This document shows, one piece after another, positions 34,305-38,417 of a stretch of 64,000 bases of DNA; positions within the stretch are counted from its first letter, which is position 1, and each line of letters opens with the position of its first letter. This stretch comes from Scenedesmus sp. PABB004 (taxonomy: Eukaryota). The notes beneath the pieces are model-generated. The model made no database searches. It was not told the origin of the DNA and saw only the letters and a program-made list of their open reading frames with translations. Both the position numbers and the translations under genes were made by a program. The DNA lies in NCBI GenBank assembly GCA_014905635.1, contig JABVCE010000007.1, positions 310,001-374,000 of the forward strand, given 5' to 3'.

Positions 34305-37300
34305 ATGCAGCCTGCTCGTGCGGCCGCGCGCTCGTCGGCGTTCCCTGGTGCGCGCGGCGTGCTGGCCCGCATGGCGCCGAGGCACCCGCCCGCGCTGCGG
34401 CCGCGCGGCGGCCGGGGCGGCGGGCCGAGCGCCTCCCGTGGCCCGCCCGCAGACTATCGCAAGACTGACATCGCGCACAAGCACATCAGGCGCGGCCTGG
34501 CGCTGTTCTATCGCCATGTCCCCACGCTGCTGCTGCTGCCCGTGGCCGCCAGCCTCGCGGTGAGGCGCCGCGGGAGCGCCCGGGACCCTCCCGCACGCGC
34601 GGCGCGGCGCTCACGCCCGCACGCGCGGCGCCCGCAGCTGGAGCTGCTGTCCATGGCAAAGAACGGCGACCTGCACCGCCTCTGGACCGTGGCGAGCCAG
34701 ACGGACCTCACCTTCAACCTGGTGCGCCCGGGGCGCGAGCACGGGCGCCGCCCGGCGGCCCGCGCGGCGCGCGGCGCGCGGCGCCAGCAGCGGCGCGCCC
34801 CGCCGCGCGGCGCCGCCGCCGGGCGCGGCGCCGCCGCCTCGCCGGCTGGCGAGCCCACCGCGCCGCCCACCCGCCGCCCGCACCCGCCGCCGCGCACCCG
34901 CCGCCGCGGGCGCGGCAGGTGACGGTCGTCGCGTGCGTGAGCGTGATGGCGGCGGCCATCCTCGCGTTCTTCCTCCTGCAGACGCGGCCGGTGTACCTGG
35001 TGGACTACAGCGTCTACCGCCCGCCCGACAGGTGCGAGGAGCAGCGGCGGGGCGCGGCCCGCGGCGGCGGCCCGCCGCGCGAGGAGCAGCGGCGGCGCGC
35101 GCGCGGGCGCGCACGAGGAGCAGCGGCGGCGGGAGGCCGCGGCAGCCGCGGCAGCGGGCGGCCGCGGCAGCAGCGGGCGGCAGCGGCAGCCGCGGGCGGC
35201 AGCGGCAGCTGCTGCAGGCGGCAGCGGGCGCCAGCGGGCGAGGCGGGGCGCGGTGGCGCGCGCGCGGCAGCTGGAGGGAGGCGCGCCGGCGGCGGCGGGC
35301 GGCTGCAGCTCGGCGCAGCGCCGGCGTGGCCCTGCCCCGCCCCCCACCGCGCTCCGCCGCGCGGCAGCTGGAAGATCGCGGCCCCGCGCTTCCTGGGGCG
35401 CTCGGTGTCCTCCCAGGTGCTGACGGCCGCCCCCGCCCGCGCCGCGCCGCGCCGCGCCCGCGCGCCCCGCTGCTGCAGCTGGAAGTGGCCGAAGCAGTGG
35501 CACGCGCACTGCACCGCGGCGTGCAAGGTGTGTGGCCCGCGCGTGCTGCGGGGCGGCGGGCCGCGCGCCGCTGGCGGCGCCGCGCCCCCGCGGCGCGGCG
35601 CCGCCGGCGGCGCGCGGCGCGGCGCCCGGCGGCGCGCGCGGGCGGCCCGGACCGCCGCGGCGCGGCGCGCGGCCGCCTCGGGCGCCGCGGCCGGCCCGGC
35701 CGGCGCTGACGCCCGGGGCCCAGCGCCGCCCGGCGGCAGCACCGGCCGGGCCGGCCGCGGCGCCCGCGGCGCCCGCGCGCCGCGCCGCGGCGCGCCGCCC
35801 ACGCCCCACCCACCCCCCGCCCCACCCAGCCGCCGCGCCCCCGCGCCGCCGCGCGCCGCCGCGGCGCCGCTCACGCCCGGCGCCCGCCCGCCCGCCCGCC
35901 CGCCCGCCCGGCCGGCCCGCTGCGGTGTGCGCCGCGCGTGTCGCGCGCAGAAGTTCACGCCCGAGAGCATAGAATTCCAGGCCAAGATCCTCGCGCGCAG
36001 CGGCCTCGGCGACGAGACGTACCTCCCGCCCGGCCTCGCGCAGCAGCCGCCGGCCATCAGCATGAGCGACGCGCGCTGGGAGTTTGAGCAGGCGCGTGAT
36101 GATGATGGGGGGGAGAGGGAGAGGGAGAGGGAGAGGGACAGAAAGAGAGAGCGGCGTTGCGCCGCGCCGCGCCGCGCCGCGCCGCGCGCCGGCCGGCCGC
36201 CGACCCCGTCTCGCCCGCGCGCGCCGCCGCGCAGGTGTGCTTCACCGCGGTGCGCGACGTGCTGGCCAAGGCGGGCGTGAGCCCGCGCGCGGTCGGGTGC
36301 GTGATCGTCAACTGCAGCCTCTTCAACCCCACGCCCAGCCTCGCGGCGATGGTGATGAACCACTTCAAGATGAGCAGCAACGTCATCAACTACAACCTCG
36401 GCGGCATGGGCTGCTCGGGTGCGGGGGGTGGGCTGCTCGGGACGCGCGCCGCGCGGGCCGCGCCGCCCGCGCCGCCGGCGCCGCGCCGCGCCCGCGCCGC
36501 CGGCGCCGCCGGCCCGGAGCCGCGCCCCCCTGACACGCGCCCACGCCCGCAACACACACCCACGCACCCCCCCCCACCCCCGCCCACCCCCCAGCCGGCA
36601 TTGTCGCGATCGACCTGGCGCGCCAGATGCTGCAGCTCATGCCCAACACCTACGTGCTCGTGGTGTCGACGGAGAACATCACACAAAACTGGTGCGACCC
36701 CCGCGCCCGCCGCCCGCGCCCGCCGCGCGCGCGCGCCCGCCGCCGCCGCCGCCGCACCGCGCGTTCGGGTGTCGCGCGCGCCCCGCGCCCGCCCGTCTGG
36801 CCGCGTGCTCTGCCAACACGCACGACGCAAAAGAAAACACACAGCTCACACCACCCACCACCACGCCCGCAGGTACTTTGGCAACACCAAGTCGATGCTC
36901 ATCCCCAACACGCTCTTCCGCGTCGGCGGCGCGGCGATGCTGCTGAGCAACAAGCGCATGGACGCGTGGTGCGCGCGCGGCGCTGGCTGCCGCACGGCGG
37001 CGGCGACACGGGGGGGGGGGGGGGACGGGACGGCGGGCGCCAGAGGGGACTGGGAGGGGCGCCCGCACGGCGCCGGGCCGCCGCGCCCGCGGCGCCCGCC
37101 GGCGCCTCGCCCCACTGCTCCCCGCCGCCGCGCGCGCCGCCGCGTGCTGCCCACAGGCGTGCCAAGTACGAGCTCACGCACGTCGTGCGCACGCACCTGG
37201 CCGCCAACGACGCGGCGTTCAACTGCGTGGTGGAGCAGGAGGACGCGGAGGGCAGCCGGGGCGTGAAGCTGAGCAAGGAGCTCATGGCCATCGCGGGTGA

Positions 37301-38339
37301 GCGGGCGGGAGGGGCGGGCGGGCAGGGACGGGGCGGGGCTGCGGCGGCGGCGGCGGGCTCGGGGCTGCGCGTCGCCGGCGGGCGCCGCAGCAGCCGCCGC
37401 AGCGTGGTGCCTGACGCCCCCGTCCCCCGCCCTCCCCTGCCCTCGCCGCCCCGTCCCGCCAGGCGAGGCGCTGAAGGCCAACATCACCACGCTCGGGCCG
37501 CTCGTGCTGCCGCTGAGCGAGCAGATGCTGTTTGCGGCGAACATGCTCGCCCGCAAGGCGCTCGGCAAGGGCCGCGTGCGCCCCTACATACCAGACTTCA
37601 AGCTCGCGTTCGAGCACGTCTGCATCCACACAGGTGCGCGGCCCGCGCCCGCGCCGCACCGCCGCCGCGCCGCCGCGCCGCGCCGCCGCCCGGCCCACGC
37701 CGCCGCACGCGGCTCTTAAACCCTGGACCTGTGCACCCGCCCTGAACGCCGAACCCCGCCAGGCGGGCGCGGCGTGATCGACGAGATTGAGAAGCAGCTG
37801 AGCCTCACGGCCGACTACGTCGACCCCAGCCGCGCGACGCTCTACCGCTACGGCAACATCAGCAGCAGCAGCATCTGGTGCGCGCCCGCGCGCGCGCGCG
37901 CGCCCGCGCGCCAACGTGCCTGCACCCCCGCGCCCGCCGCGCCCGCGGCCGCCGCGCCGCGCGCTGCGCGCGCGCGCGCTCACCCTGCCGGCGTGCGCCG
38001 GCCCGGCGCCGACAGGTACGTGCTCGCCTACATCGAGTCCTGCAAGGGCGTGCGCAAGGGCGACCGCGTCTGGCAGCTGGGCTTCGGCTCGGGTGCGCGC
38101 GCCCGCCGCGCCGCGCCGCCGCCGCCGGCCGCGCGCGCGCGCCGCGCCGCGCGCGGCGCCCCCCCGCCGCCCCGCCCACGCCCGCGCGCCGCCGCCGCCG
38201 CCCCGCCCGCGCGCGCCCGGCAGGCTTCAAGTGCAACAGCGCGGTGTGGCGGGCCAACCGGCGCATCTGCGAGACCCACGCCGCGTGGGAGGGCTTTGAC
38301 CACGACCAGATGGTCGCCGACCTGGCGCAGCAGGAGTGA
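34305..38339 (+). CDS. KCS: 3-ketoacyl-CoA synthase (FAE1/KCS very-long-chain fatty-acid elongase)
   Basis: [96 protein letters not shown]; two alternative 49-nt exons at 35368-35416 and 35479-35527. Confidence 0.97.
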
Positions 38340-38353
38340 GCTCAGCCCAGCCT

Positions 38354-38417
38354 GGCCCGGCCCGGCCCGGCCCGGCCCGGCCCGGCCCGGCCCGGCCCGG
38401 CCCGGCCCGGCCCGGCC
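38354..38417. repeat. (GGCCC)n pentanucleotide repeat at the start of the KCS 3' UTR
   Basis: Perfect tandem pentamer. Confidence 0.9.

Follow-up and report, generated by a model that had tools for sequence, protein, structure and literature searches.

A candidate pair of mutually exclusive exons encoding the helix-4 segment of a 3-ketoacyl-CoA synthase in Scenedesmus sp. PABB004

Some exons are kept apart by the geometry of the intron that separates them. In exons 2 and 3 of alpha-tropomyosin, the downstream branch point lies too near the upstream donor, so that the two exons cannot be spliced together. To our knowledge, mutually exclusive exons are seldom met with in the green lineage, and a link to a defined biochemical determinant is available for few of them. 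Exons 4 and 5 of Volvox carteri cyn23, of 106 nt each, are mutually exclusive, give isoforms of equal length and were verified by RT-PCR (PMC4378016). Like the pair described below, these are green-algal exons of equal length, and this length is not a multiple of three. Unlike it, they belong to another gene family, and the accessible part of that article gives neither a specificity determinant nor an exclusion mechanism.

In plant 3-ketoacyl-CoA synthases (KCS), an element called helix-4 lines the distal acyl tunnel, according to the accessible parts of the plant studies cited here. In citrus KCS6, the substitution F109N abolishes activity and V104N reduces it; T108W caps the products at C26 and H112W at C24 (PMC12716393). 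In maize CER6, V103, F108 and I115 line the tunnel (PMC12674111). In poplar, the helix-4 swap PtCER6(106-118) moves the product range from C28 down to C20-C24 and gives a 3.4-fold rise in monounsaturated products, and the authors term helix-4 modular (PMC9574513). The segment studied here is, by ungapped alignment, the same structural element as these residues (poplar PtKCS1 131-141 and PtCER6 106-118; citrus T108, F109 and H112; maize V103, F108 and I115), which in plants also contacts CER2/GL2 partners. Plant helix-4 diversity resides in separate paralogous genes or in engineered chimeras, whereas the gene described here would exchange the element by splicing.

The closest counterpart is the orthologous KCS gene of Tetradesmus obliquus, found under the locus tags OEZ85_013868 and OEZ86_014126 (WIA16946-8, WIA37166-7). 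Each tag carries a pair of isoforms (P0036 and P0037; P0035 and P0041) that are equal in length and differ at only 8 positions, all within one 17-residue segment. These isoforms are known here as database protein records. They presumably derive from the UTEX 3031 genome, a two-haplotype T. obliquus assembly annotated with BRAKER and RNA-seq according to the accessible part of its preprint. The literature searched yielded no published description of the isoforms and no paper on alternative splicing of KCS in algae.

Here we analyse a window of 64,000 nucleotides from Scenedesmus sp. PABB004 (positions 310,001 to 374,000 of contig JABVCE010000007.1), which contains two candidate alternative exons, A and B, in a KCS gene. 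We think it likely that A and B are tandem duplicates of an ancestral 49-nt KCS exon, kept as a mutually exclusive pair in a Scenedesmaceae-like lineage. Judged on sequence, the pair appears to be a conserved mutually exclusive one; exclusive exons as such are already known, and the algal KCS case would be a new example.

The gene and its two candidate exons

The gene model, which was built and translated, extends from 34305 to 38339 on the forward strand with 13 introns. It has 13 coding exons with either A or B in place and a product of 545 residues. The model is supported by tblastn with P0002, from Flechtneria, and P0005. Three of the four window exons tested against Pfam score above the gathering cut-off of 27 bits for PF08392 (FAE1_CUT1_RppA), with 38.8, 88.6 and 31.5 bits; the last exon, the fourth tested, matched no family. 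Orthologues carry PF08392 together with a C-terminal PF08541/PF02797. The spliced model contains all three motifs, GMGCS, IHTGG and GNxSSS, of the Cys-His-Asn catalytic triad, a triad named for KCS in the accessible text of PMC12674111 and PMC12716393. In an alignment of 20 sequences, these motifs occupy invariant columns (C239, H412 and N445 in P0037 numbering). The whole protein is 87% identical to Flechtneria P0002 and about 82-84% identical to the T. obliquus orthologue. By domain content as well as by catalytic motifs, the gene is thus classed as a FAE1-type 3-ketoacyl-CoA synthase.

Table 1. Features around the alternative exons (window positions; a slash marks an exon border, lower case is intron)
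Feature	Positions	Strand	Remarks
Constitutive exon	34919..35031	+	end of membrane anchor and strand beta1; phase 2 at 3' end; CGACAG/GTGCGA
Intron before exon A	35032..35367	+	336 nt; GC 0.88
Alternative exon A	35368..35416	+	49 nt; gcag/CTGGAAG...TCCCAG/GTGCTGAC
Spacer	35417..35478	+	62 nt; CTGAC at 35420-35424
Alternative exon B	35479..35527	+	49 nt; gcag/CTGGAAG...TGCAAG/GTGTGT
Intron after exon B	35528..35950	+	423 nt; GC 0.94
Constitutive exon	35951..36091	+	followed by a GC-AG intron

An earlier note on this DNA had described the two exons, and its coordinates, phases, lengths and AG/GT borders hold exactly (Table 1), as do its spacer, the CTGAC within it and the remark that the flanking introns are long for the gene, in which the remaining 10 introns measure 78-197 nt. 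It had also proposed that one exon keeps the frame and that both or neither shift it. Translation of all four combinations bears this out: A alone or B alone gives an open coding sequence of 1638 nt, inclusion of both gives 1687 nt and of neither 1589 nt, the last two being frameshifted into early stops. A and B both start in phase 2 and have their first seven nucleotides and the preceding gcag in common. Over a stretch of 28 nt, 21 of them in the upstream intron, the two are 79% alike; direct identity over the exons is only 24 of 49 nt. In the intron before A, a CCCAC-like adenosine lies 21 nt ahead of the acceptor. This intron also contains 19-nt tandem repeats (35120-35264) and a 15-nt copy of the acceptor region of A (35261-35275). 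The intron after B contains two long hairpins (35535-35643 and 35648-35797). Within its last 100 nt, the sole adenosine besides that of the acceptor AG belongs to a CTCAC (35870-35874), 77 nt upstream.

The 17-residue segment encoded by either exon corresponds to the residues right after strand beta1 and includes helix-4. It aligns without gaps (phmmer) to residues T101-L117 of citrus KCS6. AF2 models of both T. obliquus isoforms, used for local secondary structure only since their mean pLDDT is low (62-64), agree on a strand at 118-120 and a helix at 121-130; pLDDT in this block is 77-81. The A type has F at position 9 and S at position 13, and is plant-like in combining this F with a residue 4 that is either small or aliphatic. 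The B type has W4, W8, H9, T13 and C16. The chain-length role that the earlier note had assigned to the segment finds support in its identification with helix-4, an element altered in the published plant mutants and swaps. Because of the W4, W8 and H9 of B as against the small or aliphatic residue 4 and F9 of A, the two mRNAs would encode elongases that differ in tunnel volume and polarity, and hence in chain-length or unsaturation preference. By analogy with the plant enzymes, the two isoforms would then make different products.

Support for both exons and the state of exon A

Frame compatibility is cheap in this region. Between 35032 and 35950 there is room for 21 AG..GT candidates of 25-150 nt that are open and fit the frame, and three of them measure exactly 49 nt, namely A, B and one other. 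Homology to the KCS segment, unlike frame compatibility, is not cheap: best identities to orthologous segments are 16/17 for B and 12/17 for A, and at most 3/17 for the third 49-nt candidate. Profiles made from the orthologous segments were scanned against about 112,000 17-mers from the six frames of the window. Exon B came first with the B profile (z 14.6). It also led with the A-type profile (z 8.9), followed by A (z 7.5). Exon B was also recovered by tblastn with P0005 (E 1.4e-4). Finally, A and B are the sole low-GC islands between 35032 and 35950, with values of 0.735 and 0.694, respectively, as against a minimum of 0.816 among 677 local intron windows of 49 nt.

We infer that both exons are used in the organism of the window. 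An alternative would be that only B is used and that A is a decaying relic or splicing noise. Exon A is indeed the most divergent A-type copy. It lacks P5 and C12, which are kept in all six distinct A-type orthologous segments, and for this reason it may be relaxed or decaying. It has R at the tunnel positions 8 and 12. Its donor, GTGCTG, is weak and has no G at +5, a nucleotide found in all ten constitutive GT donors of the gene. Once the shared SWK is dropped from the A-type profile, A falls outside the top five 17-mers, and a crude GC-HMM called B a low-GC segment and merged A into the intron. B is also far better conserved. Against this, A retains its exact length, an open frame and AG/GT borders, and its GC content is below that of every local intron window. 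Two residues, F9, which corresponds to F109 (essential in citrus), and L10, are retained, and the SVSSQ end of A is identical to that of P0027, the A-type segment with which it shares 12 of 17 residues (8/17 with Flechtneria and Enallax, 7/17 with the metagenome locus L002). R8 is also found in Enallax and L002, and the A type is the one used in transcripts of the closest relatives, Flechtneria and Enallax. On balance, we regard the use of B alone as unlikely and favour the use of both exons.

Orthologues and ancestry of the pair

A search for both exons in chlorophyte KCS orthologues, as the earlier note had suggested, finds both types in T. obliquus, in two records, and in Scenedesmus sp. 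NREL 46B-D3 (P0004 and P0042). Both variants are therefore kept in other species, as expected of mutually exclusive exons. The T. obliquus B isoform is identical to exon B of the window at 16 of 17 positions, as against about 82-84% over the whole protein, and its A form, SWKTPRQMFHECSVASK, is identical to exon A at only 7 of 17. One could argue that such pairs are annotation artefacts (alternative predictions, alleles or paralogues), and that a single copy is used constitutively with no regulated exclusion. Indeed, the two types of T. obliquus and of Scenedesmus sp. NREL are known from protein records alone, P0004 and P0042 lie on different contigs, and the transcriptome-derived proteins show the A type only. 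However, in the two T. obliquus records both forms stand under one locus tag each and are identical outside the segment, every isoform carrying one version of it alone. The conservation of B between the window and T. obliquus, together with the A-type mRNAs of relatives, argues that selection acts on both types within the clade. BRAKER/AUGUSTUS, moreover, is not known to report alternative transcripts except where RNA-seq hints back them. We therefore hold an annotation artefact to be very improbable, and retain a conserved pair as the reading of these data.

A metagenome scan, in which pattern matches were confirmed by alignment of the downstream exon, gave four loci (L001-L004) among at least 600 matches; among the matches listed, these four confirmed loci include no close relative. 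L002-L004 have one 49-nt exon (CAG/CTGGAAG...AGG/GTAAGG) behind the same phase-2 upstream intron; in L001, the segment is fused to the upstream exon. A protein search with the upstream exon gave 6 matches and no new isoform pair among them. A and B are adjacent, equal in length and phase and homologous, and both match the same segment of the family, which is the pattern of a tandem duplication. From these alignments, A and B are taken to be both homologous to one ancestral 49-nt exon, of which the distant relatives L002-L004 keep a single copy. In a gene tree calculated with the segment removed, one clade (support 83/87, drawn open) unites the window sequence with Flechtneria, Enallax, Scenedesmus and Tetradesmus; within it, these four genera form a subgroup (support 87/86) that leaves the window sequence outside. 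Hence, the exon pair probably predates the common ancestor of the window sequence and these genera. The possibility of two clean ancient types, considered at first, lost ground through L001, which combines I4 with H9 and T13, and through P0017, which is A-like with C16 and K17.

Spacer, exclusion and possible consequences

The earlier note had proposed a steric exclusion of the two exons, and this signature turns out to be stronger than stated: the adenosine of CTGAC, A35423, is the only one in the spacer apart from that of the acceptor AG. Its distance is 6 nt to the donor of A and 55 nt to the acceptor of B. Because this sole candidate branch adenosine is so close to the donor, splicing from A to B looks sterically blocked. 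The predicted layout would resemble that of alpha-tropomyosin, but with a candidate adenosine so near the donor that it overlaps the 5' splice-site region itself; in the window, the branch point is a prediction from sequence. In the 2348 intron nucleotides of the gene, CT[CG]AC occurs 8 times, as against about 1.4 expected by arithmetic from base composition, and seven of the eight lie 25-78 nt from an acceptor. The broader CTNAY is missing from 6 of the 13 introns; not all branch sites of the genome thus have that form. The spacer is also shorter than all 12 other introns of the model (78-423 nt). The GC-HMM, used as an intron finder with obvious false positives, gave 68 candidates, of which 4 are under 62 nt and the next measure 74 and 77 nt, which weakly suggests that 62 nt marks the lower end of the intron length range.

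Exclusion would then operate in two layers. In the first, A35423 would be the sole usable branch adenosine for the acceptor of B and would overlap the 5' splice site of A. The donor of A and the acceptor of B would exclude each other's use, and the 62-nt A-to-B intron would be unable to form a lariat. In the second, mRNAs with both exons or with neither would be unproductive because the frame shifts into early stops, and such misframed mRNAs would be subject to NMD. A docking-site/selector mechanism of the Dscam type was also considered and set aside, as intron pairing did not exceed that of dinucleotide shuffles in four duplex tests with 200 shuffles each (z -0.26, -1.65, -0.07 and -0.13).

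Co-inclusion of A and B could in principle come about through retention of the spacer: the two exons share one genomic frame at a distance of 111 nt, this frame is open between 35009 and 35998, and the resulting 160-nt exon would be in frame, open and add 37 residues. Other in-frame donors could also serve, with an end of A at 35404 (37 nt) or of B at 35542 (64 nt). Such readings have very little to commend them, since all 20 extracted orthologue segments are 17 residues long with no insertion or deletion in any orthologue here, a 37-residue insertion would disrupt helix-4, and at 90% GC an open frame is no surprise. The A-spacer-B reading frame was compared with longer proteins, and none of 1341 candidates matched at E <= 10.

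A wider reading, which we put forward tentatively, joins a helix-4 splice switch in Scenedesmaceae, its hard-wiring at GTGCTGAC and a fixation of the B form in Selenastraceae. First, a conserved splicing switch would swap helix-4 of a single KCS and so retune its acyl tunnel; the two Trp and the His of B, as against the small residues and Phe of A, would set the chain length or unsaturation of the very-long-chain fatty acids. Second, U1 and U2 would be rivals for one set of nucleotides at this donor. Third, Selenastraceae would have lost the intron and exon A via a cDNA; this would have fixed the B form and left a fused exon made of the upstream exon plus B, as in P0050 and P0018.

The 16 swapped codons fall on the helix which, in structural and chimera studies of plants from 2022-2025, was named a modular determinant of chain-length and saturation specificity in KCS, and the prediction of two isoforms with two products is thus directly testable in yeast. 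The extreme poverty of the introns in adenosine pins the candidate branch points unusually well, which makes the steric model easy to test. If true, the pair would represent nature's own version of the engineered helix-4 swap, and exon duplication would do here the job done by gene duplication in plants. These algae are oleaginous and serve in lipid production, and an elongase specificity controlled by splicing would therefore be of practical interest.

Anatomy of the KCS gene and of its exon pair

Two alternative exons, A and B, had been proposed in the KCS gene by the earlier note, and its coordinates for exons, spacer and borders all proved correct once the gene was rebuilt and translated. 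The exon models were checked by tblastn with two homologues and by Pfam searches on four exons, three of which scored above the cut-off for PF08392. The proposed frame rule was also borne out. Indeed, inclusion of A or B alone gives an open CDS of 1638 nt (545 aa), whereas the frame is shifted, leading to early stops, with both exons (1687 nt) or with neither (1589 nt). The introns flanking the pair, described as long, measure 336 and 423 nt vs. 78-197 nt for the 10 others of the gene. In the sequences below, a slash marks an exon border. The intron at 36092-36234 is of the GC-AG kind (CAG/GCGCGT...GCAG/GTG): homologues need the junction ...WEFEQ/VCFTAV, and the frame would be lost with any GT donor. 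Near 36105-36150, the same intron is rich in purines, as (GAGGGA)n. Directly 3' of the stop codon lies a microsatellite, (GGCCC)n, with about 13 units (38350-38415).

Coordinates of the KCS gene and of its alternative exons (window positions)
Feature	Position	Strand	Remarks
FAE1-type KCS gene	34305-38339	+	exons reconstructed by hand and translation
Exon upstream of A/B	ends 35031	+	phase 2
Exon A	35368-35416	+	49 nt; gcag before, CTGGAAG at start, GT after
A-B spacer	35417-35478	+	62 nt
Exon B	35479-35527	+	49 nt; gcag before, CTGGAAG at start, GT after
Next constitutive exon	starts 35951	+	

Frame compatibility by itself is weak evidence. The G+C content of the window is about 79% throughout, and one frame stays open for 330 codons (35009-35998), from the end of the upstream exon through both introns, A and B to the start of the next exon; hence, open frames are uninformative at such a G+C content. 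Between the upstream and downstream exons, 21 AG..GT candidates of 25-150 nt are open and frame-compatible, three with a length of exactly 49 nt. Homology separates A and B from the other candidates, with a best identity to orthologous segments (the 17 encoded residues) of 12/17 for A, 16/17 for B and at most 3/17 for the third 49-nt candidate. When all six frames of the window were scanned with an A-type and a B profile (about 112,000 17-mers), each profile ranked exon B first (z 14.6 for the B profile), and the A-type profile placed exon A next (z 7.5); A falls out of the top five when the shared SWK is removed. Exons A and B are also the sole low-GC islands of the interval (0.735 and 0.694). 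The lowest value among 677 local 49-nt intron windows is 0.816, and the gene has 0.60-0.69 in its constitutive exons, the first one excepted, and 0.80-0.98 in its introns. A and B share only 24 of 49 nucleotides; their duplication is thus old.

Other sites and repeats were observed in the interval. A 15-nt exact copy of the acceptor region of A plus CTGGA (CGCGCGGCAG/CTGGA, repeat family D9) lies at 35261-35275, 97 nt upstream of A, at the head of a 55-nt AG..GT candidate (35271-35325) with an open, compatible frame, an intron-like composition and no similarity to the family beyond SW; this candidate may be a decayed third exon copy, or chance. The same intron carries a tandem repeat of 19-nt period (35120-35264; 4-5 copies, GCGGCAGC(A/C)GCGGGCGGCA-like). 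Alternative in-frame donors would end A at 35404 (37 nt, /GTGTCC) and B at 35542 (64 nt, adding VCGPR); the latter, /GTGCTG, is the same hexamer as the donor of A. Length variants matching these two donors were found in none of the orthologous segments compared. Finally, just 3' of its donor, B is followed by two long, near-perfect intronic hairpins (35535-35643, with 52-nt arms, 88% complementary, and a 5-nt loop; 35648-35797, with 69-nt arms, 90% complementary, and a 12-nt loop). Such structures could reduce the effective length of the intron or hide the donor of B.

Occurrence and history of the two exon types

Sphaeropleales KCS proteins were found by a search with the downstream exon, and isoforms then by cluster look-up. 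A-type segments have F at position 9 and S at 13; B-type segments have W4, W8, H9, T13 and C16. Both types, which the earlier note had suggested looking for in related chlorophytes, are present in protein records of T. obliquus and Scenedesmus sp. NREL 46B-D3. The T. obliquus locus OEZ85_013868 has two isoforms of 515 aa each, P0036 and P0037 (segment of P0037: SWKTPRQMFHECSVASK), whose records differ at only 8 positions (119-131), all within the segment. A second record, OEZ86_014126, has the same isoform pair (P0035 and P0041). The UTEX 3031 preprint, in its accessible part, presents a T. obliquus genome of two haplotypes, with a BRAKER annotation that drew on RNA-seq, and we infer that the OEZ85 and OEZ86 records are these two haplotypes. 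Among P0033-P0035, P0040 and P0041 (OEZ86_014126, OEZ85_013869), one T. obliquus record annotates the KCS as the C-terminal portion of products of 806-1107 aa that begin with an armadillo-repeat-like product of an upstream gene, and the other record has two separate genes; the fusion is probably a gene-model merge. In Scenedesmus sp. NREL 46B-D3, the A type is represented by protein P0004 and the B type by the partial protein P0042, from different contigs; the two are identical except for the segment and the last five residues of P0042. The A type is also found in transcriptome-derived proteins of Flechtneria rotunda (P0002, P0029) and Enallax costatus (P0028), and in the JGI protein P0027.

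The window B segment is identical to that of T. obliquus at 16/17 positions, the whole proteins being 82-84% identical. Window A is identical to P0027 at 12/17 positions and to the other A types at 7-8/17. It retains the exact length, the borders, F9, L10, the terminal SVSSQ and an exon-like composition. However, it is the most divergent A-type copy, and in this lineage selection on it may be relaxed, or the exon may be dying. Positions 5 and 12, which are P and C in 6/6 orthologous A types, are A and R in window A; the +5 G of 10/10 constitutive GT donors of the gene is missing from its donor, and a crude GC-HMM left it unseparated from intron.

In a gene tree built without the segment, the window groups with Flechtneria, Enallax, Scenedesmus and Tetradesmus in one clade (support 83/87, drawn open), outside the subgroup of these four (87/86). 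Since the window and Tetradesmus both have the pair, it probably predates their clade. A metagenome scan gave at least four loci (L001-L004). In L002-L004, from a more distant relative of moderate GC, the same phase-2 intron is followed by a single 49-nt exon (CAG/CTGGAAG...AGG/GTAAGG) encoding an A-like segment (F9, S13, V14), and the flanking introns (about 95-100 nt, counted by eye) are too short for a second copy. A B-like segment (H9, T13, C16) occurs in L001, in the read-through proteins P0018 and P0050, and in the Monoraphidium/Raphidocelis group. In L001 (5446-5676), P0018 and P0050, it is joined to the upstream exon without the phase-2 intron; that of P0050 is clearly B-type. This fits a loss of the intron and of exon A, possibly via a spliced B-form cDNA. 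The ancestor would have had a single A-like 49-nt exon; F at position 9 is shared with plants. Duplication would have preceded the Scenedesmaceae/Selenastraceae split, and the Selenastraceae side would have retained B alone, speculatively through such cDNA-mediated intron loss.

Predicted basis of mutual exclusion

A and T make up 7% and 4%, respectively, of the introns of the KCS gene. In the spacer there are just two adenosines, that of the acceptor AG and A35423, in CTGAC, 6 nt from the donor of A and 55 nt from the acceptor of B. The motif CT[CG]AC occurs 8 times in the 2348 nt of KCS introns vs. about 1.4 expected from base composition, with an acceptor 25-78 nt away in 7 cases. The last intron has one possible branch adenosine, 45 nt from its acceptor, and in the intron before 35951 the only adenosine within 100 nt of the acceptor is 77 nt upstream, in CTCAC; these single candidates indicate that branch-acceptor distances of 45-77 nt are normal here. 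As A35423 is the sole non-acceptor adenosine of the spacer and lies at a normal distance, the likely branch point of B is predicted to overlap the 5' splice site of A, which would make an A-to-B lariat implausible. At 62 nt, the spacer would also be the shortest intron of the gene. For the acceptor of A, a candidate adenosine is found in CCCAC at -21. Because 49 is not a multiple of 3, early stops would act as a second safeguard. No excess of docking/selector-type intron-intron pairing was found in four duplex tests against dinucleotide shuffles.

Mutually exclusive exons that arose by tandem duplication are of a known kind, as are steric exclusion and the policing of inclusion by the frame. 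In green algae, the available part of one paper describes RT-PCR-verified mutually exclusive exons in Volvox cyn23 (PMC4378016). The T. obliquus KCS isoforms are already known as database records; a literature search for alternative splicing of KCS in algae found no paper.

The segment and helix-4 of plant KCS

Plant KCS structures in the PDB are 9kqg and 9lgy (citrus KCS6, according to the paper's data statement) and 9uu3-5. With phmmer, the T. obliquus segment aligns ungapped on citrus T-C-R-V-P-F-A-T-F-M-E-H-S-R-L-I-L. The aligned letters match the published numbering at R103, V104, T108, F109, E111, H112 and R114; thus, segment positions 1-17 correspond to citrus KCS6 residues 101-117. As reported in the accessible text of PMC12716393, elongation by citrus KCS6 is abolished by F109N and strongly reduced by V104N, products are capped at C26 with T108W and at C24 with H112W, and R103, E111, H112 and R114 contact CER2. 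In maize, V103, F108 and I115 line the tunnel (PMC12674111, in part); they are segment positions 4, 9 and 16, the 9uu3 chain numbering being offset by 6. "Helix-4" (PtCER6 106-118) is described, in the portion available of PMC9574513, as a modular major specificity determinant; with the helix swapped, C20-C24 products replaced C28, and monounsaturated ones rose 3.4-fold. The FAE1 chimera work to which the earlier note alluded is also cited there. Y258 being common to PtCER6 and citrus, the numbering was taken as the same; PtCER6 106-118 would then cover segment positions 6-17 and extend by one residue into the next exon.

In T. obliquus, the A form is distinguished from the B form by positions 4, 8, 9, 10, 11, 13, 14 and 16, four of which are tunnel positions. 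B types have W at 4 and 8 and H at 9; A types have T/I/M/V at 4, M/L/R at 8 and F at 9. In AF2, the models of the two isoforms, poor overall (mean pLDDT 62-64), agree in a strand at 118-120 and a helix at 121-130, where the local pLDDT is 77-81, and Pfam scores are alike (417 and 420 bits). The interest of the pair lies in an unusually clear predicted overlap of donor and branch point, and in a swapped exon that corresponds to an experimentally defined specificity helix. There, a natural Trp in B, where T108W shortens the products of citrus KCS6, suggests by homology that B would be the shorter-chain form.
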